DNA of 64,000 nucleotides from NCBI GenBank assembly GCA_020845735.1, contig JADLFF010000058.1, positions 40,368 through 104,367 of the forward strand. The letters run 5' to 3'. The translations under genes were made by a program, and so were the position numbers. The number at the start of each line of letters is the position of its first letter. Position 1 is the stretch's first letter. Shown one piece after another: positions 16,712-28,684 of this stretch. Below the pieces are notes generated by a model. That model had not been told where the DNA came from, searched no databases, and saw nothing but the letters and a program-made list of their open reading frames with translations. Source of the stretch: Dehalococcoidia bacterium. GTDB lineage: Bacteria; Chloroflexota; Dehalococcoidia; UBA2979.

Positions 16712-17209
16712 CTAGTCGCGCGCTCGCGACAGGACGAGCACGGCGCCGATGAGGATCAGCATCGACGGCCACCAGATGCGCGCGAGGCCGGACCCGATCA
16801 GGTGGAACATCGGGAACTGGCTCATCAGCGCCAGGCCGCCGACGCCGATCAGGATGACGCCGAGCACGAACGCGCCGTTCGAGTTGCGGAGGCCCGACGC
16901 GACTCGGGGGGCGCCGGTCTGTCCGGAGATGAGCAGCGCCGAGGCGGGCGGGTCCGGCATGATCACCCAGAGCACGACGTAGGCGAGGAGCACGATGCCG
17001 CCGCTGAGCAGCGTCGCGAGCACGAGCCCGAGGCGCACGATGGTCGGGTCGACATCGAAGTAGTCGCCGATGCCAGCGGCAACGCCGCCGACCATGCGGT
17101 CACGGGAGCGCGTCAGCACGCGGACGGGCGGCGCCTGGGGCGGCGGCTCGTCGTGGTTGAAGGAGGACGGGGCGCTGCTCGAAACCGTGTCTTGCATCTG
17201 GGGCTCCAT
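16712..17209 (-). CDS. PspC domain-containing membrane protein
   Basis: LTRSRDRMVGGVAAGIGDYFDVDPTIVRLGLVLATLL is the PspC domain, followed by TM helices. Confidence 0.7.
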   Translation of the reverse strand: MEPQMQDTVSSSAPSSFNHDEPPPQAPPVRVLTRSRDRMVGGVAAGIGDYFDVDPTIVRLGLVLATLLSGGIVLLAYVVLWVIMPDPPASALLISGQTGAPRVASGLRNSNGAFVLGVILIGVGGLALMSQFPMFHLIGSGLARIWWPSMLILIGAVLVLSRARD

Positions 17210-17284
17210 TGCCTCGCAGTCAATCGTACCGTGCAGCGGAGGACGCGAGTACGGGGTTTCCCCTACTCGCGTATCCGTCGAGGT

Positions 17285-17911: not shown

Positions 17912-18322
17912 CTAGTGGCAGGCGCGGGCCTGGCCGCTGCCATCGGCGGTCTGGAAGGACGAGCCACACGCGCACGACGAGGTGGCGTTCGGGTTGTGGA
18001 TGGTGAAGCCGGACTTCATGAGGTCCTCGACGTAGTCGATCTCGGCGCCGGCGACGTACTGCTGTGAGTCGGCGTCGACGAGGATGCGTACGCCCTCGTC
18101 CTCGATGACCGCGTCCCCGGCTTCGGTGTCACTGGCGATGGCCATGCCGTACTGGTAGCCGGAGCAGCCGCCCCCGACGACGAACACGCGCAGGGCGGCG
18201 TCGGCGACGCCGCGGGCCTCGAGGAGGGCTTTCGCCTTCACAGCGGCGCGCGGGGTAATCGAGATGATGGACACCGGCACGGGGGGTGCCGCAACGAGAG
18301 CGTTCAGGTCAAGGGTGGTCAT
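17912..18322 (-). CDS. iron-sulfur cluster insertion/assembly protein, HesB/IscA/ErpA family
   Basis: Conserved cysteines including C-terminal CACGSSF. Has an unusual 13-aa C-terminal tail. Confidence 0.8.
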   Translation of the reverse strand: MTTLDLNALVAAPPVPVSIISITPRAAVKAKALLEARGVADAALRVFVVGGGCSGYQYGMAIASDTEAGDAVIEDEGVRILVDADSQQYVAGAEIDYVEDLMKSGFTIHNPNATSSCACGSSFQTADGSGQARACH

Positions 18323-18680
18323 CCGAGTGCCTTCCCACGGTCCGGATCAGCGGTACATCTGATCATCGGACCGAACACATCCGACTGACACGTTCCGGGG
18401 CCGACGGCACACGCCACGGCAGCGGACTCCCCCAGAGGATAACGAATCGGGGATGGGCTGGCTAGGCGCCGGTGGCGCGGCCCTCGAGAGGGCGCGGCCC
18501 CTCGAGGCGCCTCGAGAGGCCTCGATGGGACGTATTACGGCCCAGGCGGAGCACCTCCGAGGAGATTTCGAAGAAGATTCTTCGCCGGCCGTCGATCCCT
18601 GTCGATCTCGGCGCGTGCCGTTCGTGTAGGTGGCAGCAGTCCGACAGCGGGTCGGACGCGACCCAGGGAGGAATCGAACG

Positions 18681-19524: not shown

Positions 19525-19584
19525 GGCGCTGAGCTGAAGCACCGAGCCGACGCGGGGCGACCGGGCACTGGGGACGACTCAGCC

Positions 19585-20832
19585 GTGACCGTAACCGCGA
19601 GCGACATCGAGCGCGCGTTCCGAGCCGAATCGGGGCGCGCGGTCGCCTCGCTGATTCGCACCTTCGGGGACGTTGACCTCGCCGAGGAGTCGGTGCAGGA
19701 CGCCTTCGAGATCGCGCTGCGGCGGTGGCCCGAGACCGGACTGCCGCCGAGCGTGCCCGGTTGGATCATCACCACTGCTCGCAACCGGGCGGTCGACTGG
19801 GTCCGTCGCGAGGGGACGCGCGAGCAGCGCCAGCGAGAGGCCGTCCGACTGGCCTCGCAGACCGCGCCATCGAGGTCGGACGAGCAGGAGGAGGACGCGG
19901 TGGACGACGACCGCCTCCGCCTGATGTTCACCTGCTGCCACCCTGCCCTCGCGGCCGAGGCGCAGGTGGCGCTCACGCTTCGCCTCGTGGCCGGCCTGCA
20001 CACCGGGGAGATCGCGCGGGCGTTCCTGACCTCGGAAGCGACGATGGCGCAGCGCCTCGTGCGGGCGAAGCAGAAGATCCGGGCGGCGCGGATCCCCTAC
20101 CGCGTGCCGGAGGAGGCGGAGCTGCCCGGACGGCTGCGCTCCGTCCTGGCCGTGGTCTACCTCGTGTTCAACGAGGGGTACCTCGCGACGAGCGGCGAGG
20201 ACCTCGCACGCGGGGAGCTGTGCGCCGAGGCGATCCGCCTCGCGCGCGTCCTCGACGGGCTGATGCCGAACGAGCCCGAGGTGAAGGGCCTGCTCGCGCT
20301 GCTGCTGCTGGCCGAGGCGCGCCGGCCGGCGCGGGCAGCGCTCGATGGGTCGCTGGTGCGCCTTGCCGACCAGGACCGCGCGCTCTGGAACCGGGCGCTC
20401 ATCGAGGAGGGCCACGACCTCGTGCGGTGGTGCCTGCGCGTGAACCGGCCGGGCGTGTTCCAGCTGCAGGCGGCAATCGCCGCCGTACACACCGACGCGC
20501 CGACGGCCAATGAGACGGACTGGCGCCAGGTCGTCGCGCTGTACGACCAGCTCTACGCCATGCAGCCGACGGCCGTCGTGGCGTTGAATCGCGCCGTCGC
20601 GGTGGGCGAGCGGGACGGGGCAGCCTCGGCGCTGGCGATCGTGGATGGGCTCGCGCTCGAGCGGTACCACCTCTGGCACGCGGCGCGCGGCGACCTCCTC
20701 GAGCGGCTGGGACGCCTGGATGAGGCGCGCGCGGCGTTCGGTGAGGCGGCCTCGCTGGCGACGAACGAGGCCGAGCGTCGCTACCTCGAGATGCGCGTGG
20801 GCGCGCTCGGGCAGGCGGGGCCGACGAGGTGA
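19585..20832 (+). CDS. ECF sigma factor with long C-terminal extension (YCII-associated type)
   Basis: Sigma region 2 and region 4 within the first ~200 aa, then a ~220 aa helical C-terminal domain. GTG start. Sits immediately downstream of the YCII and VOC genes. Confidence 0.7.
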
Positions 20833-21725: not shown

Positions 21726-22145
21726 ATGCGAGCGTGGGCTGTTCTCCTGCTCTGCATGGTGTGGGCCGGTTGCTCGTCGGCGGACCCTTTCACGTCTTCG
21801 CCGGCGCTTCGCGCTGAGTTCCTCGAGCCATCGGGCGGGGAGATCGCCATCTGGAGGGCCAGGAGCGCACCGGCGAGCCTCGACGTGGGCGACTCGATGT
21901 ACTTCAAACTGCTGCACTGCGGCCTCCTGTCACCCATCGACGTGGACGGGAGCCTGTGGGATCCCCGTACGGCACACGACGGAAGCGGCGGCGCGCTGAG
22001 CGACGAGCAGAGCGACGAACTCGTGAACGGCACGCCGGGGACGTTCACGCTGCGCGCGCCGGACCTCGCGGAGTTCCGAACGACCCTCGGCGCGGTGGTG
22101 CAGCTGCATCGCGTGGAGGCACGCGCGTATCGAGGGTGCTCGTGA
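21726..22145 (+). CDS. predicted lipoprotein, unknown function
   Basis: Signal peptide with lipobox WAGC, no recognisable domain. Upstream region is AT-rich. Confidence 0.45.
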   Translation: MRAWAVLLLCMVWAGCSSADPFTSSPALRAEFLEPSGGEIAIWRARSAPASLDVGDSMYFKLLHCGLLSPIDVDGSLWDPRTAHDGSGGALSDEQSDELVNGTPGTFTLRAPDLAEFRTTLGAVVQLHRVEARAYRGCS

Positions 22146-22226
22146 TCGGGTCGGACGGCGCGGCGTGACGGACGCCCTCGGCGGTGAGCGCGCATAGGAT
22201 CGTGGTGCGTGCGAGCGGAGGCGGGC

Positions 22227-23447
22227 ATGACGAGCGACGGACGGGCCCGGGTGTACCTCGATCATGCGGCAACGACGCGGCCGGACGAGCGCGTCATCGA
22301 GGCGATGCTGCCGTACCTCCGTGAGCGCTGGCACAACCCCTCGTCGATCTACATCGAGGCGCAGGCCGCGCGGCGCGCCATCGACGAGGCGCGCGAGACC
22401 GTCGCGGAGCTGCTGGGCGCGCGTCCCGAGGAGATCGTGTTCACCTCGGGGGGGTCAGAGTCCGACAACCTGGCGCTGCGCGGGGTGATGGACGCCTCGA
22501 GGGGGCGCGGGCGGCACCTCGTGACGAGCGCCGTCGAGCACCACGCCGTCCTCGACACCGCCGAGCAGCTGGGCCGCGAGGGCGCCGCGGTCACCCTCGT
22601 GGGGGTGGATGGCGAGGGACGCGTGAGCGCCGAGGCGGTGGCCGCTGCCGTGCGGGACGACACCGTCCTCGTCAGTGTCATGCACGCCAACAACGAGGTG
22701 GGGGCGATCAACGACCTCGCCTCGATCGGCTGGGCCGTCCGCGAGCGGAACCCGCGCGCGGTGGTGCACACCGACGCGGTGCAGAGCGCCGCGCACCTCG
22801 CCCTCGACGTGGACCGCCTCGGCGTGGACCTCCTCACGATGACCGCGCACAAGCTGTACGGGCCTCGAGGAGCGGGCGTGCTGTACGTGCGCACCGGGAC
22901 GCCGCTCGCGCCGCAGATCATCGGCGGTGGGCAGGAGCGCGAACGCCGCGCCGGCACCGAGAACACGGCTGCCATCGTGGGCCTCGCGACGGCCATGCGC
23001 CTCGCGCACGAGGAGCGCGAGACCGACCTCGCACGCGACCGCGCCCTGCAGGCGCGCCTCCTCGAGGAGTTGCCGCGGCGCATCCCGCTGCTCGGGATCA
23101 CCGGGCCGCGTGACGCCTCGCAGCGGCTGCCGGGCAACGTGTCGGTGGTCGTGGGGTTCGTCGAAGGGGAGTCGATCCTGCTGGCGCTGGACCTTGCGGG
23201 CGTGGCTGCCTCGAGCGGGTCGGCGTGCACCACGGGCTCCGTGGAGCCGAGCCACGTGCTCGTGGCGATGGGCGTGCCGCCCGACCTCGCGAGGGGGTCG
23301 CTGCGCCTCACGCTGGGACGTGAGAACAGCGAGGCGGACGTCGAGCGCCTGCTGAGCGTCCTGCCGCCGATCGTGGAGCGGATGCGCGCGCTCTCGCCGG
23401 TACGCGTCGAGGCGCCCCCGGAGTGGGCGCCCTGGCTCGTGAGCTGA
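22227..23447 (+). CDS. cysteine desulfurase (NifS/IscS class I)
   Basis: PLP lysine TMTAHKLYGPRG and active-site loop SSGSACT. Confidence 0.85.
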   Translation: MTSDGRARVYLDHAATTRPDERVIEAMLPYLRERWHNPSSIYIEAQAARRAIDEARETVAELLGARPEEIVFTSGGSESDNLALRGVMDASRGRGRHLVTSAVEHHAVLDTAEQLGREGAAVTLVGVDGEGRVSAEAVAAAVRDDTVLVSVMHANNEVGAINDLASIGWAVRERNPRAVVHTDAVQSAAHLALDVDRLGVDLLTMTAHKLYGPRGAGVLYVRTGTPLAPQIIGGGQERERRAGTENTAAIVGLATAMRLAHEERETDLARDRALQARLLEELPRRIPLLGITGPRDASQRLPGNVSVVVGFVEGESILLALDLAGVAASSGSACTTGSVEPSHVLVAMGVPPDLARGSLRLTLGRENSEADVERLLSVLPPIVERMRALSPVRVEAPPEWAPWLVS

Positions 23448-23553: not shown

Positions 23554-25011
23554 CTAGCGTGCAGGCGCGCAGGCGGAGGCGTCGAGGGTCTGGGACGCTG
23601 AGCCGCGGACCGTGCAGGTGATGCGGGGCTGACCAGCCTCGATGACCGTGACGGTGACCGTCACCGGGTGGTCGGGCGTCGTGTGGAGACAGGAGTCGGG
23701 CGCGGCCGAGTTGTGACTCCAGCGCACCGAGACACCGCTCTGGGTCCATGGCCCTCGAGGCGTCCCGCACGCCTCACCGGCCAGGCGCCACTCGTAGGTG
23801 AGCGCGTCGCCGTCGGGGTCGAAGGCACCGATTGCGTAGGTGGTCACCGGAGTGGCGAGGGAGACCGTGATCACCTCGACGACCGGGGGACGGTTGGTCG
23901 CGGCCGCGGGAGCGGCAGTCGCCGAACCGGTGCCGGGGTCGCCCTGGGCGCTGGCGGGGACACCGACCAGCACGCCGCCCGGCGACTCGGCCGCGGGAGT
24001 CTCCGGGCCGTCGGGTGTGAGGAACGGCAAGGTCCCGAGGAGCAGCAGCCCCACGAGGGGGACGAGCGCGAGCGCGACCAGCTGCCGCTTCGAGAAGCGG
24101 GAGGCGTGCTCGCCGGGCACGAGGATCGCCTTCTGGGACTCCTCGGCGGTGCAGGGGTGCGGATCGCCTGCGGGCCGCCACTCCTCGACCTCCTCGAGCT
24201 CGATGCGCTCGTCCCAGAAGGTGCGGAGGGACGACCAGCCCTCGTTGAGGAGGTCGCCCGCGAGGTTCCGCGCGCCGCCAGACATCCAGACCGCGAAGCC
24301 CGTCGAGAGCTGGAAGACCAGGTAGCCCCAGCCGAGGGCGCCCATGAAGCGAGCGGCACCGCTGGTGACCGCGGCTGCTCGGCTCAGCGTGGCCGCCGAG
24401 GCCGCGGGCGTCCCGGCCGTCCCGAACACGGCCGCGAAATCGCCGGTCGCCGCGGCCGCCGAGGCGGACTCGAAGGCGGCGGCGTTGGCAGCGCTGGCGC
24501 CGAGTGACTGGCTCGCGACCCCGGAGGCGACGGCCGTGCCGTCGATCGCGAAGTCGACGCTGGTGCCGCCGAAGCCGGTGAAGAACTCGTAGTAGGACTC
24601 CTGCGTCTGGTTGATGAGCCAGACCTCGTAGCGCTGGAGCTCCTCGTAGGCGTTCTCGACGAACTTCCTGACGCGGTACTTCTGCTCCATCCAGCAGACG
24701 TTGCCACGTCGCCGCGTGACGAACTCGCCGAGCGGCGTGGCCTCCTCGGAGTAGTGGTCGTACTGAGGACGGCGCTCGGCGCGATAGGTGTTGAACCACC
24801 GCGTCTCGGTCGAGTAGGTGACGGACTTGCCGAACCAGTAGAAGGGGTTGATGTACTTCAGCGTGTCGGCAGTGCCTGTCGAGGCGGACTCGGGGTCGAA
24901 CTCGCTGCCGATTTGCTTCCCGCGGTCGCCGAGCTGGGGGTAGCCGTACTGCAGACTCGGCGCGCCGGGCGCTGGAGGTGGCATGTTGGGGAGCTGGGTC
25001 GGCTTCGGCAT
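23554..25011 (-). CDS. single-pass membrane protein with an aromatic-rich cytoplasmic domain, Ala/Ser-rich linker and PKD/Ig-like extracellular domain; function unknown
   Basis: Pro-rich N-terminus, then a Y/W/F-rich segment (KYINPFYWFGKSVTY...ESYYEFFTGFGG), TM LVALALVPLVGLLLLGTLPFL, then DPDGDALTYEW in a beta-rich C-terminal domain. Start is uncertain (25011 or 24984). The upstream part of this ORF conflicts with the NuoB gene on the opposite strand. Confidence 0.45.
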   Translation of the reverse strand: MPKPTQLPNMPPPAPGAPSLQYGYPQLGDRGKQIGSEFDPESASTGTADTLKYINPFYWFGKSVTYSTETRWFNTYRAERRPQYDHYSEEATPLGEFVTRRRGNVCWMEQKYRVRKFVENAYEELQRYEVWLINQTQESYYEFFTGFGGTSVDFAIDGTAVASGVASQSLGASAANAAAFESASAAAATGDFAAVFGTAGTPAASAATLSRAAAVTSGAARFMGALGWGYLVFQLSTGFAVWMSGGARNLAGDLLNEGWSSLRTFWDERIELEEVEEWRPAGDPHPCTAEESQKAILVPGEHASRFSKRQLVALALVPLVGLLLLGTLPFLTPDGPETPAAESPGGVLVGVPASAQGDPGTGSATAAPAAATNRPPVVEVITVSLATPVTTYAIGAFDPDGDALTYEWRLAGEACGTPRGPWTQSGVSVRWSHNSAAPDSCLHTTPDHPVTVTVTVIEAGQPRITCTVRGSASQTLDASACAPAR

Positions 25012-25261
25012 GGCGGTCTCGCAGTGACTCGATGTCCCGCGGGCAATCCCGCAGGGTTCCCGGGGGCATCCCGGGGGCGCAGCGCCCTCGGAATGACAAT
25101 CGCGATGACACGACCGTACTGACGGACGGGGGCCGCGGGGATCGGGAAGCTCCCGGAATTTGCGGGCCTCGGTGGGCCCGGATAGGATGCGGGGTGCTGC
25201 GAGCGGGACGCTGACCGGAGCGTTCGACGGCCTCGATGCGGCGCGGGCAACGGACGTGGCG

Positions 25262-25981
25262 ATGACGATGACTGACCCCACTGGTGCAAGCCACTCGCAT
25301 GGCCAGCGGTCGATTCCGCTGCTGTACCAGGACCTGAACCCCTCGGCGGCGGCGCTGTCGCTGGAGGAGGAGGTCCAGAAGAACGTCCTTCTGACCTCGG
25401 TGGACGGGCTGCTGAACTGGGCGCGGTCCTCGAGCCTGTGGCCCGCGATGTTCGGGCTGGCGTGTTGCGCCATCGAGATGATCGCCACGGCGACCTCGAG
25501 GTATGACATCGCGCGGTTTGGTTCCGAGGTGTTCCGCGCGTCGCCTCGGCAGGCGGACCTGATGATCGTGGCGGGGACGGTGACCTGGAAGATGGCGCCG
25601 GCGGTGCGCCGCGTGTACCTCCAGATGGCCGAGCCGCGCTGGGTGATCTCGATGGGTGGGTGCGCGATCATGGGCGGCCCGTTCGCGTTCGGGTACTCGG
25701 TGCTGCCGGGCGTGAACCTGATTACCCCCGTGGACGTGTACGTGCCGGGGTGCCCGCCTCGACCTGAGTCGCTCCTCCAGGGGCTGATGCTGCTGCAGGA
25801 CAAGATTCGCCATCACGGCTTGAGCGGAGACCGAGGTCGCCCGGAGCCGGATGGTGATTTCTCTCGTTATCTGCCCGAGGGGGACCCGATCCGGCGCGAG
25901 CTGGAGTCGCTGTTCCCGCCGTACGCGGGCCTCGATGACCCGAACCGCCTGGTCGGGGGGCACCCGCTGGCGCGCCAGTAG
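25262..25981 (+). CDS. NuoB-like [4Fe-4S] protein (NADH-quinone oxidoreductase subunit B / hydrogenase small-subunit family), orphan
   Basis: Diagnostic [19 protein letters not shown] and VPGCPPRPE motifs, plus a ~60-aa C-terminal extension. No other nuo genes within 25 kb. Confidence 0.7.
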
Positions 25982-26129
25982 CGGGTAGGGGACGCCTCGA
26001 GGGGTGCGGGCGCGGACCTGCCGGGGCCCGGACGCGGGGCAACGGCCACATTCAGATTCCATGCATCGGTGCCGACCCTCATAGGGACGGCAGGGAATGC
26101 GTCCTCGGACGCGCCGGAGGCATGGACGC

Positions 26130-27017
26130 ATGGTCGCTGCAAGGCGAGCAGAAGAGCAGCCGTTCGACTACCCGTCCCTCGAGGAGCTTGCGGCGCGCGT
26201 CGCGACGCTGCGACCGGTCTCGGGGGTGGCTGTCCGTGTGCTCGCGCTCACCGAGGAGCAGTCGATCTCGGCGAATGAGCTTGCCGATGTGATGTCGGCG
26301 GACCAGGCGCTGTCCGCGAAGATGCTGCGGATGGCGAACTCGGCGTACTACGGGCACGCGAGGCGGATCAGCACCGTCCGAGATGCCGTGGTGCTCCTCG
26401 GCAGCCGCACGGTGCGGTCGGCGGTGCTGGTCTCGACGGTGATGAACCGAGCGAGCCACGACGGGCTCATCGAGCGGTACGACTTCTGGCGGTACTGCGT
26501 CGGGGTGGGGATCATCGCCGGGCCGGCCGCGCAGCGCGTGCGCCTGGACCGGCACCAGGCGTTCACCGCAGGCGTCCTGCACGCGATCGGACTGCTGGCG
26601 CTGGACCAGCAGGCGCCGGACCTCCTCGGTGATGCGCTTTCGCTGGCGCAGGAGGGTGGCATCTCGCTGCGCGAGGCGGAGCTGGCGCTGTTCGGGTACA
26701 CCGACTCAGACCTCGGGAGGCTGCTGGCACGGCAGTGGAACTTCCCGGACGACCTCGTGGAGGCGATCGGTGCGTGGCCGCAGCCGCCGGAGACGCAGCC
26801 GGGCACGCTCGCCGAGGTGTTGCACCACTCGCGAAACCTGGCGGCGGCGTGCGGGTTGCCGGACGGCCTCGAGCATCCGCGCGGATCGGCGGTGCCGACC
26901 GAGGTGCCGGAGATCTGGTTGCAGCCGCCGTGGTCCGCAGCGCTGGGCTCCCTCGGTGGGGTACAGGGGATCATCGAGAAGTCCGACTCCTTCGTCGAGG
27001 CGACGCTCCTCGGATAG
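26130..27017 (+). CDS. HDOD domain signalling protein
   Basis: LPVSGVAVRVLALTEEQSISANELADVMSADQALSAKMLRMANSAYYG matches HDOD. Confidence 0.65.
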   Translation: MVAARRAEEQPFDYPSLEELAARVATLRPVSGVAVRVLALTEEQSISANELADVMSADQALSAKMLRMANSAYYGHARRISTVRDAVVLLGSRTVRSAVLVSTVMNRASHDGLIERYDFWRYCVGVGIIAGPAAQRVRLDRHQAFTAGVLHAIGLLALDQQAPDLLGDALSLAQEGGISLREAELALFGYTDSDLGRLLARQWNFPDDLVEAIGAWPQPPETQPGTLAEVLHHSRNLAAACGLPDGLEHPRGSAVPTEVPEIWLQPPWSAALGSLGGVQGIIEKSDSFVEATLLG

Positions 27018-27325: not shown

Positions 27326-28684
27326 ATGAGCGCCCAGCGTCACGCGGGCGCGCCGCGGCTGAGGGCGCTCGTGCGCCCGATTGTGCAGCCGGTGCAGGAG
27401 TTCATCGCGACCGAGGCGTCGGGTGGGCTGCTGCTGATGATCGCGGCCGCCCTCGCGATCGCCTGGGCGAACTCGCCGTGGTCCGAGGCGTATCACCACC
27501 TGCTCGAGCGCCACATCGTGGTCGACGCGGGGTTCTACCGCGTCGACGAGTCGGTGCACTGGTGGGTGAACGACGTCGCGATGGTCGTGTTCTTCTTCCT
27601 GATGGGGCTGGAGATCAAGCGCGAGCTCGTGATCGGCGAGCTGAACTCGGTGCGGCGTGCGCTGGTGCCGCTGGTCGCGGCGGCCGGTGGCATGGTGATC
27701 CCCGCGCTGATCTTCCTCGCGGTGGTGCGTGACCCCGAGGCGGCCCGGGGCTGGGGCGTGCCGATCGCGACGGACATTGCGTTCGCCCTCGGGGTGGCGA
27801 CGCTGCTCGGGCCGCGGGTGCCGATCGGCCTCAAGGTGCTGCTCCTCGGCATCGCGATCTTCGACGACCTCGGGGCGGTGGCGGTGATCGCGATCTTCTA
27901 CGCGGGCGACGTCGCGTTCGAGCCGCTGCTGACGGCGGCCGCGATCCTCGGGCTCACGTATGCCATCCAGCGGGTCGGGGTGCGCGACATCCCGGTCTAC
28001 GTAGCCCTCGGCGTGATGGCGTGGATGGCGGTCGTCGAGTCAGGCGTGCACCCGACGACGGTGGGCGTGGCGATGGGACTCCTCACGCCGTGGCACTCGT
28101 GGAGCGAGCCCCGCGAGTTCGTCGGGGAGGCGCGGGAGATCTTGCGCTCGATCGAGGCGGAGTCGCAGGCCGGGAGCGAGACGACGCGGCGGCATCACCA
28201 CGCGGTGGCCGTGAGTCGCCTCCGGCGCCTGCACGACGCGAGCATGGCGCCCCTCGATCGGCTGGAGCACGCGCTGAACCCGTGGGTGGCGTACGGCATC
28301 CTGCCCCTGTTCGCGTTCGCGAATGCGGGCGTTGACCTGCGAGGGGACGCGCTCGGCCTCGCGGCCACCGCGCCGCTGACGTGGGGCGTCGCGCTGGGCC
28401 TGCTGATCGGGAAGCCGCTGGGGATTGCCCTCGGAGCTGCCGTGGCGGTGCGCCTCGGTGCGGAGTTGCCCTCGGGAGTGCGCTGGCCGGGCATCCTCGG
28501 CATGGGGATGCTGGCGGGGATCGGGTTTACCGTGGCGCTGTTCGTCGCGCAGCTGTCGTACCCGACGGCGGCACTGCTCGCCGAGGCCAAGGTCGGCATC
28601 TTCGCCGGATCGCTGGTCAGCGGCGTGCTGGGTTACGTCATCCTCAGCCGGCTGTCGACGCACAACGGCACCACCGAGGCGTAA
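27326..28684 (+). CDS. nhaA: Na+/H+ antiporter NhaA
   Basis: Full-length NhaA pattern (FFFLMGLEIKRE, IATDIAFALG, DDLGAV). Confidence 0.85.
   Translation: MSAQRHAGAPRLRALVRPIVQPVQEFIATEASGGLLLMIAAALAIAWANSPWSEAYHHLLERHIVVDAGFYRVDESVHWWVNDVAMVVFFFLMGLEIKRELVIGELNSVRRALVPLVAAAGGMVIPALIFLAVVRDPEAARGWGVPIATDIAFALGVATLLGPRVPIGLKVLLLGIAIFDDLGAVAVIAIFYAGDVAFEPLLTAAAILGLTYAIQRVGVRDIPVYVALGVMAWMAVVESGVHPTTVGVAMGLLTPWHSWSEPREFVGEAREILRSIEAESQAGSETTRRHHHAVAVSRLRRLHDASMAPLDRLEHALNPWVAYGILPLFAFANAGVDLRGDALGLAATAPLTWGVALGLLIGKPLGIALGAAVAVRLGAELPSGVRWPGILGMGMLAGIGFTVALFVAQLSYPTAALLAEAKVGIFAGSLVSGVLGYVILSRLSTHNGTTEA

Follow-up and report, generated by a model that had tools for sequence, protein, structure and literature searches.

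We analyzed the product of an open reading frame (ORF) on the reverse strand (positions 23554–25011) of a 64,000-nucleotide stretch of contig JADLFF010000058.1 from a Dehalococcoidia bacterium; this whole stretch is referred to below as the window. The original prediction, made from the letters of the window, had described the 485-residue product as an orphan single-pass membrane protein with an aromatic-rich cytoplasmic module and a PKD/Ig-like ectodomain. Structure prediction and family alignments indicate that the cytoplasmic ~290 residues are a single, previously undescribed domain, which we designate the N-module. It is modeled as an antiparallel sheet whose strands are very long and rich in aromatic residues; an uncharged, Ala/Gly/Ser-rich excursion of ~100 residues, which separates strand 5 from strand 6, terminates in a conserved hydrophobic helix. 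One strong transmembrane (TM) helix follows, and the protein ends in an extracytoplasmic Ig-like domain. We regard this architecture and topology as highly probable. The overall layout of an inside module, a TM helix, and an outside Ig-like domain is familiar in kind; what appears undescribed is the inside module and the Cys/His-bearing family of the ectodomain.

The cytoplasmic module and the membrane topology

Structure prediction of the aromatic-rich module, which the original prediction had suggested, gave a confident long-stranded sheet. Two AlphaFold2 (AF2) runs, one on the full-length protein (20 sequences) and one on residues 1–292 (19 sequences), yielded the same strands (residues 33–47, 63–80, 86–102, 105–134, and 252–266/270–286), which, together with a helix at residues 135–145, were mostly modeled with predicted local distance difference test (pLDDT) values >90. 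As read off the sequence, the residues alternate along these strands so that aromatic or hydrophobic residues occupy one face, and Arg, Lys, and Glu abound on the other. Residues 148–219 are disordered in the models, and a long helix (residues ~204–243, pLDDT 62–87) includes the hydrophobic segment. Because the strands on either side of the Ala-rich stretch share one predicted sheet, the "linker" of the original prediction is better described as an insertion inside one domain. Its Ala/Ser/Gly-rich composition was borne out (A+G+S 61% in residues 151–222, compared with 27% in the background), whereas its role as a spacer between domains was not, since a single fold encloses it and its last part leads into a conserved hydrophobic helix.

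The composition of the preceding regions was as first described. Pro makes up 20% of residues 1–50, and in residues 51–150 Tyr, Trp, and Phe together reach 23%, compared with 6.5% across 21 further genes in the window. When Asn and Lys are included, this block reaches 32% against a background mean of 9.5% (standard deviation 3.7, maximum 25%), which agrees with its description as atypical for the genome.

The family alignment gives the following order of motifs: (i) a Pro-rich tail; (ii) ExRxFNxFRxE..P; (iii) G..CW.E; (iv) YExWxIN.T..YY.F.TG.GG; (v) the uncharged stretch, rich in Ala, Gly, Ser, and Thr; (vi) the hydrophobic helix, which contains F233 and T237; (vii) (S)EGW.F; and (viii) (PH)PC. 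The query bears all of these motifs and all of the family-invariant residues (C106, E129, W131, G258, and W259), and 8 further positions are nearly invariant (N74, G95, W107, N134, Y140, F233, T237, and C287). The hydropathy of the helix at residues 223–247 is 1.16 in the query and rises to 2.2 in distant relatives.

The original prediction had matched the product to no known family, and for the N-module this was reproduced with every resource searched. Pfam, NCBIfam, PADLOC, and PHROGs returned nothing significant for the query or for the 19 family members scanned singly; isolated sub-threshold or low-complexity matches (ARA70, DUF4139, tape-measure, and Zot-like) each occurred in at most 2 members, at chance level. 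PDB searches with the protein sequence and with profiles of both domains brought up nothing beyond low-complexity or chance similarities (ribosomal L16; NheB, E 0.5; TFIIIA zinc finger, E 0.9). A Foldseek search of the whole model against the PDB gave no match to the N-module and found solely Ig/FN3 domains through the C-terminal part, and a Foldseek search against BFVD gave no match.

The topology was derived from hydropathy, flank charges, and domain context. The only classic TM-helix pass in the query is at residues 311–329 (Kyte–Doolittle hydropathy 2.41). The flanks of this helix carry 3 K/R on the N-terminal side versus 0 on the C-terminal side and 1 versus 3 D/E, and a bias of K/R to the N-terminal flank is seen in most family members (for example, 5 versus 1 and 6 versus 0). 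The N-terminus is Pro-rich and polar and has no signal sequence, and in members of the family to which the ectodomain belongs, either a signal peptide or a TM helix within the chain always comes before it. These features, with flank charges that obey the positive-inside rule, support the single-pass topology with the N-terminus inside and the C-terminus outside that the original prediction had proposed. The strands that flank the hydrophobic helix of the N-module are predicted in one sheet and would therefore lie on the same side of the membrane; for this helix itself, a re-entrant element or a dip into the inner leaflet is most likely. A two-span topology that puts the N-terminal domain outside was dropped, since the signal peptide is absent and the sheet takes its strands from both before and after the hydrophobic helix.

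Of the rival explanations weighed, three keep some weight, which in decreasing order of our confidence are a three-span topology, a membrane-permeabilizing effector, and a Cys/Glu enzyme or metal center. The first of these takes residues 148–247 as an in–out–in helical hairpin with the Ala/Gly-rich loop outside and the sheet in the cytoplasm, so that the protein would be polytopic. The indications for it come from relatives: the second segment has a hydropathy of 1.8–2.2 in P0007, P0012, P0017, P0082, P0139, and P0152, and all of these except P0012 have an earlier segment, just after YYxFxTGxGG, that scores 1.3–1.7. In the query, however, the first segment contains 2 Asp and scores <1.0, the second scores only 1.16, and AF2 gives residues 204–243 as a single continuous helix, with the rest disordered. 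We consider three spans unlikely; a full hairpin is possible in those relatives with an additional, weaker first hydrophobic segment. The single-pass topology is used in Table 1 and below.

Table 1. Features of the target protein and its upstream region, with positions in the window (AF2-based entries are predictions; aa, amino acids).
Feature	Positions	Strand	Basis and remarks
Complete coding sequence, 485 aa + stop	23554–25011	−	Translation, third-codon-position GC content, NCBI record, start common to homologues
Pro-rich N-terminal tail, aa 1–30 (MPxPT..PPAPGAP..QYGYPxLG)	24922–25011	−	Kept in closer homologues; no signal peptide
Aromatic-rich first part of cytoplasmic module, aa 31–147	24571–24921	−	Alignment, composition, AF2
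Near-uncharged Ala/Gly/Ser-rich stretch, aa 148–222	24346–24570	−	Length varies across family; pLDDT <50
Conserved hydrophobic Gly-containing helix, aa 223–247 (FMGALGWGYLVFQLSTGFAVWMSGG)	24271–24345	−	Alignment, hydropathy, AF2
Return to sheet via hairpin 252–266/270–280(286), aa 248–292, ending in PHPC	24136–24270	−	pLDDT >90
Membrane-adjacent cytoplasmic segment, aa 293–310, basic end RFSKRQ	24082–24135	−	
Single strong TM helix, aa 311–331	24019–24081	−	Hydropathy, AF2, flank charges
Extracellular flexible stalk, Pro/Ala/Gly/Ser/Thr-rich, aa 332–372	23896–24018	−	Composition, AF2; pLDDT <50
Ig-like beta-sandwich ectodomain with PKD-type DPDGDALTYEW motif, aa 373–485 (113 aa)	23557–23895	−	AF2, Foldseek, alignments
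Divergent intergenic region (250 bp) between target gene and NuoB-like gene	25012–25261		Holds GCGAGA

The Ig-like ectodomain

AF2 modeled the ectodomain as a beta-sandwich with strands across residues 377–483 (pLDDT ~80–92), and its Foldseek matches were only FN3/Ig-type domains (E ~1e-2, probability 0.97). The predicted fold is an Ig-like sandwich in an extracytoplasmic location and within the size range (~80–110 residues) used to define PKD domains, and this part of the original PKD/Ig-like assignment stands. The likeness to PKD in sequence is confined to the region around DPDGD..Y.W and does not reach the Pfam threshold for PKD. Direct phmmer matches were found to giant repeat proteins that Pfam annotates as PKD_4, PKD, and Big_9. 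When a 76-sequence profile of the ectodomain was compared by hhalign with 15 repeats cut from P0023 (Pfam: PKD_4), a probability of 95.9% was obtained over only 28 of 113 columns, around 'TY.I.A.DPDGD.LTY.W', and BLASTP matches to PKD-annotated repeats were just 21–43 residues long. None of the Pfam PKD models (PF00801/PF18911) was reported on the query even at E up to 10. The best sub-threshold match of the ectodomain in Pfam, and in the PDB sequence search, was the C-terminal domain of Sde0182 (Sde0182_C, PF21027; PDB 2yhg), with 14.8 bits in Pfam versus a cut-off of 27; the PDB sequence search returned no solved structure related to the ectodomain.

The PKD-type Ig-like domains (PKD, PF00801; PKD_4, PF18911; PKD_3, PF16820; K319L-like, PF22352; and Big_9, PF17963) resemble the target ectodomain as extracytoplasmic beta-sandwiches of ~100 residues and share its strand-loop-strand motif 'A.DPDGD.L.Y.W'. 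They differ from it in the remainder of the domain, where the target has the family-specific motifs GE.CGTP, WSH, PD.C.H, and DH, with 3 invariant His and 2 invariant Cys. In an alignment of 25 closer sequences, W408, E413, C415, G416, P418, P421, W431, H433, C441, H443, H448, and C466 are invariant and C481 is nearly so; in the wider 76-sequence set, H443 is kept in 87%, C466 in 76%, and C481 in 64%. The signature of the ectodomain consists of H433, H443, and H448 with C415 and C441, the other 2 Cys being present in most members; a count within residues 374–485 gave the 4 Cys that had first been noticed.

Because loops alternate between the ends of an up-down sandwich, the C–C′ loop (E413 and C415) and the long D–E loop (H433, C441, H443, and H448) are predicted to lie at the same, membrane-distal end of the domain. 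In such an arrangement, a C415–C441 disulfide may stand beside a site of 3 His and 1 Glu, and a C466–C481 disulfide may connect the last strands. The His/Cys signature suggests metal or ligand binding; the class considered for comparison is that of metal-binding Ig-like or cupredoxin-like domains, in which His/Cys ligands cluster in space.

The ectodomain belongs to a large, strictly extracytoplasmic family, which is far larger than that of the N-module: ~90 full-length matches are among the top 150 matches listed. It occurs as a single terminal copy, not in tandem repeats, and the PKD-like domain is also found C-terminal to many unrelated N-terminal regions, the majority of which have no Pfam match. 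In the set P0016, P0062, P0018, P0005, and P0004, the partners of the Cys/His Ig-like domain include ZU5-like domains and, in P0018, a sub-threshold LmeA-like match; the partner region of P0005, which has no Pfam match, resembles a carboxylate-amine ligase in our own reading.

The N-module family and the proposed role

An exhaustive search with phmmer through 1.84 billion cluster representatives returned 320 matches. Of these, approximately 20 clusters (50% identity level) cover the N-terminal ~290 residues, so that "orphan" was too strong a term for this protein; the members found by phmmer are P0002/3, P0006–12, P0014, P0017, P0020, P0024, P0038, P0082, P0089, P0091, P0111, and P0139, with E-values of 4e-80 to 1e-7 against the query. 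All other matches listed cover the C-terminal domain only. Protein identity across the family is 23–57%, and the order of domains is conserved. One more member, P0152, was added from a word-indexed search with the N-module alignment, which returned 5 proteins, probably since Ala-rich words swamped it; the same type of search with a trimmed core alignment gave 0 matches despite the presence of members in that database, which reflects a limit of the tool and is not evidence. Narrow back-translated patterns found 1 relative in a genome scan and 4 in a metagenome scan. The window and one relative are from Dehalococcoidia metagenome-assembled genomes (MAGs), and unclassified metagenome contigs supplied the remaining members.

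The TM helix and ectodomain vary across the N-module family: in some members other ectodomains take their place, and in others they are missing. The N-module is followed by (i) the PKD-like Cys/His ectodomain in the query, P0006, P0007, P0011, P0012, P0017, and P0152; (ii) a weakly Big_1-like ectodomain in P0002 and P0003; (iii) a second type of ectodomain, without a Pfam match, in the C-terminal ~80 residues of P0008, P0010, and P0020 (L014 6794–8155); and (iv) larger uncharacterized domains in P0024, P0082, and P0139. Two members, P0089 and P0111, are soluble.

The motif of the second type, 'C.YEHVHG ... ECGYGPPNFF..DDPR', marks another Cys/His-rich extracellular module. P0111 (L010 2962–4044) is a low-GC variant of the N-module that ends in 'KPKFGGKLRI', a tail also found in P0089.

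Conservation of the gene neighborhood, a check proposed with the original prediction, was examined in ~8 distinct neighborhoods, and no shared neighbor and no conserved operon partner was found. The loci of P0002 and P0003 contain genes for a UvrD-like helicase, LOG, MaoC, and sucCD; that of P0017, SnoaL and a short-chain dehydrogenase; that of P0152, a CoA-transferase; and that of P0006, a cupredoxin-like gene. P0008 (L014) and a P0009-like relative (L015) are encoded upstream of what is likely a class II ribonucleotide reductase gene, by our reading of its N-terminus. P0024 is accompanied by a HepT/MNT pair and surface proteins, and P0111 by a PIN/PhD toxin-antitoxin pair and a 56-residue colicin/pyocin-immunity-like gene.

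We tentatively favor, at somewhat less than an even chance, the explanation that the target is a membrane protein serving as a receptor or tether. The mechanism that we propose for it is a good deal more doubtful than this general reading. Because no neighbor is shared among the neighborhoods, the protein would work alone, as a one-component receptor or tether. A metal ion or an envelope ligand would be the probable binding partner of the membrane-distal loops of the ectodomain (E413, H433, H443, H448, and the likely C415–C441 disulfide). The cytoplasmic module would lie against the membrane from inside, with its Trp/Tyr/Arg-rich sheet at the interface and its hydrophobic helix dipping into the bilayer, and the membrane-proximal state of the module would be coupled to events outside. 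Single-pass one-component receptors with an N-terminal cytoplasmic output and an outside sensor include ToxR/CadC-type regulators, RsgI-type anti-sigma factors, and PknB-type kinases. The target family has the same N-in/C-out layout and pairs a conserved inside module with interchangeable outside domains; unlike these proteins, its inside module gave no DNA-binding, anti-sigma, or kinase signature in the searches, and no cognate regulator gene is linked to it.

Several points weigh against the receptor or tether: (i) outside input is not strictly needed by the N-module, as P0089 and P0111 have neither TM helix nor ectodomain; (ii) no conserved partner genes accompany it; (iii) the alignments given to AF2 were shallow (19–20 sequences); (iv) the hydrophobic helix, the disulfides, and the His cluster were placed in the predicted structure by the order of secondary-structure elements only; (v) relatives of the N-module may exist among predicted structures outside the searched PDB and BFVD; and (vi) the invariant C106 and E129, with N74, could point to an enzyme.

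In the enzyme reading, C106, together with E129, N74, and often H285/C287, would form a catalytic or a metal or cluster center of a membrane-anchored protein, perhaps tied to nearby Fe–S genes. C106 and E129 are invariant and C287 and N74 nearly so, and cysteine desulfurase, IscA-like, and NuoB-like genes lie nearby in the window. The searches, however, gave no similarity to any enzyme family or fold, H285 is not kept in distant members, and the Fe–S context is missing from all other loci but that of a near-identical relative, and we consider an enzyme quite improbable.

A latent membrane-permeabilizing effector is a somewhat better candidate than an enzyme, and still an improbable one. In this alternative, the sheet would sequester the hydrophobic helix and the Ala/Gly-rich stretch, and their insertion into the cytoplasmic membrane would cause a leak or pore. 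The trigger might be a signal sensed by the ectodomain, or insertion might be spontaneous in the soluble variants. Such a protein would be comparable to the buried hydrophobic hairpin of colicins or to suicide effectors of defense systems. Pore-forming colicin domains and bacterial gasdermins conceal a hydrophobic helix or hairpin in a soluble fold until insertion. The target compares with them by analogy only, in that it has a conserved, uncharged, hydrophobic helical element inside an otherwise polar, charged fold. The uncharged region of ~100 residues, rich in Ala, Gly, Ser, Thr, and Val, ends in this conserved helix, several relatives have a second, weaker hydrophobic segment ahead of it, and weak low-complexity matches to tape-measure and ejection-type proteins were obtained. 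The toxin-antitoxin and immunity-like genes near P0111, which is soluble, and the HepT/MNT pair beside P0024 are also consistent with an effector. By contrast, PADLOC gave no match, the structure searches gave no likeness to gasdermins, colicins, or other pore formers, and an immunity or partner gene is nowhere conserved. Most loci are housekeeping neighborhoods with conserved synteny (pcrA-like/sucCD, nrdJ-like, and cysteine desulfurase), and purifying selection is uniform. A more specific form of this idea, to which we give little credence, is that the N-module is a new membrane-inserting cytoplasmic effector whose sheet cages the Ala/Gly-rich stretch and the helix and is switched by the metal- or ligand-binding Ig-like domain. 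If true, the protein would be a self-contained transmembrane switch that alters membrane permeability or organization, built on a fold without a solved relative.

If the structure predictions hold, 2 domain families absent from current libraries are building blocks of many unannotated surface proteins: a cytoplasmic, probably membrane-associated domain of ~290 residues with a confidently predicted fold and no match among solved structures, and a widespread extracytoplasmic Ig-like domain with an invariant His/Cys signature. Describing both would improve the annotation of genomes that carry them. The protein has no bearing on a long-standing open question and is one of many uncharacterized MAG families.

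Coding evidence and genomic context in the window

The ORF represents a genuine, rare, and conserved gene on which purifying selection acts. It translates into exactly the 485 residues quoted in the original prediction, and NCBI holds an identical protein with the same boundaries (MCC6237382.1, 'MAG: hypothetical protein IT299_07390 [Dehalococcoidia bacterium]'), which is encoded on a 109-kb contig, adjoins MCC6237381.1 (cysteine desulfurase), and is followed 3 accession numbers later by MCC6237385.1 (NhaA). The GC content at third codon positions (GC3) is 0.83–1.0 over the entire ORF and 0.60–0.63 at 25039–25173; it climbs again farther upstream only because the frame there shadows the NuoB-like gene on the opposite strand. 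The GC3 profile and the layout of the ORFs thus bear out the earlier decision to discard the upstream extension to 25803. The ATG at 25011 agrees with the MPxPT start seen in homologues, which have AGGAG-type Shine–Dalgarno sites 7–12 nucleotides upstream, whereas the window has just a weak Shine–Dalgarno-like GCGAGA at the same spacing. A search around the gene found neither a sigma-70 consensus promoter nor an intrinsic terminator. For the P0002 and P0003 genes (75% identical), the ratio of nonsynonymous to synonymous substitution rates (dN/dS) is 0.19 overall and 0.15–0.24 in every segment. One 3-kb JGI contig is 99.97% identical to the window, and a second contig (L013) carries a 97% identical copy of the gene with the same NuoB-like and HDOD neighbors; no paralogue of the target was found within the window.

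That the ORF might be a chance product of a GC-rich genome, antisense to real genes, was a natural concern, as long shadow ORFs are common here and this frame itself runs to 25803 opposite the NuoB-like gene. The original prediction had likewise allowed for an antisense artefact with neither conservation nor a ribosome-binding site. The conservation of protein sequence and domain order across the family, the conserved start, the low dN/dS, and the confident fold prediction refute this reading, which now has a vanishingly small probability; GC3 falls in the true intergenic stretch, the NCBI gene call is identical, and the ribosome-binding site alone is weak.

The gene lies between a cysteine desulfurase gene (22209–23447, forward strand; Pfam Aminotran_5) and a NuoB-like gene (25262–25981, forward strand; Pfam Oxidored_q6 only). 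Pfam thereby agrees with both neighbors named in the original prediction, and the description of the NuoB as an orphan was upheld in that no other nuo gene was found among the neighboring genes scanned (~14.8–35.4 kb). A functional link of the target to these 2 genes was considered and dropped, as this context occurs only in near-identical relatives.

The layout of a cytoplasmic N-terminal domain, a single TM helix, and an outside sensor would also fit a membrane-bound anti-sigma factor, and an ECF-type sigma factor gene, fused to DUF6596 and TPR repeats, lies at 19525–20832 (forward strand). This sigma gene, however, is 3 kb away with 3 genes between, already has its own DUF6596/TPR extension, and has no counterpart at any of the homologous loci examined. 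The target has no anti-sigma Pfam match of the ZAS or RsgI type and no HxxxCxxC motif, and its predicted fold is beta-rich rather than that of a helical anti-sigma domain. An anti-sigma role is effectively refuted and has only a very slight chance of being correct.

A PspC-domain protein with a LiaI/LiaF-like TM region is encoded at 16715–17284 (reverse strand). Like the ECF sigma gene, it is of the envelope-stress type, and in other genomes the target is linked to neither. Three Fe–S-related genes occur, non-contiguously, within 8 kb: an IscA/HesB-like gene (17915–18346, reverse strand), the cysteine desulfurase gene, and the NuoB-like gene; homologues of the target do not share this context. 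The NuoB-like gene is directly followed by an HDOD-domain gene (26097–27017, forward strand) and then by NhaA (27326–28684). The NuoB-like/HDOD pair is repeated on L013, where the ORF suggests that the NuoB-like protein starts with MTMTDPTG at 25262 and not at the TTG at 25160. Between a helix-turn-helix regulator and the cysteine desulfurase lies an ORF of 139 residues (21726–22145, forward strand) that has no Pfam match and bears a lipoprotein-type signal (…LLLCMVWAGC); the same gene call is present on the near-identical contig L009.

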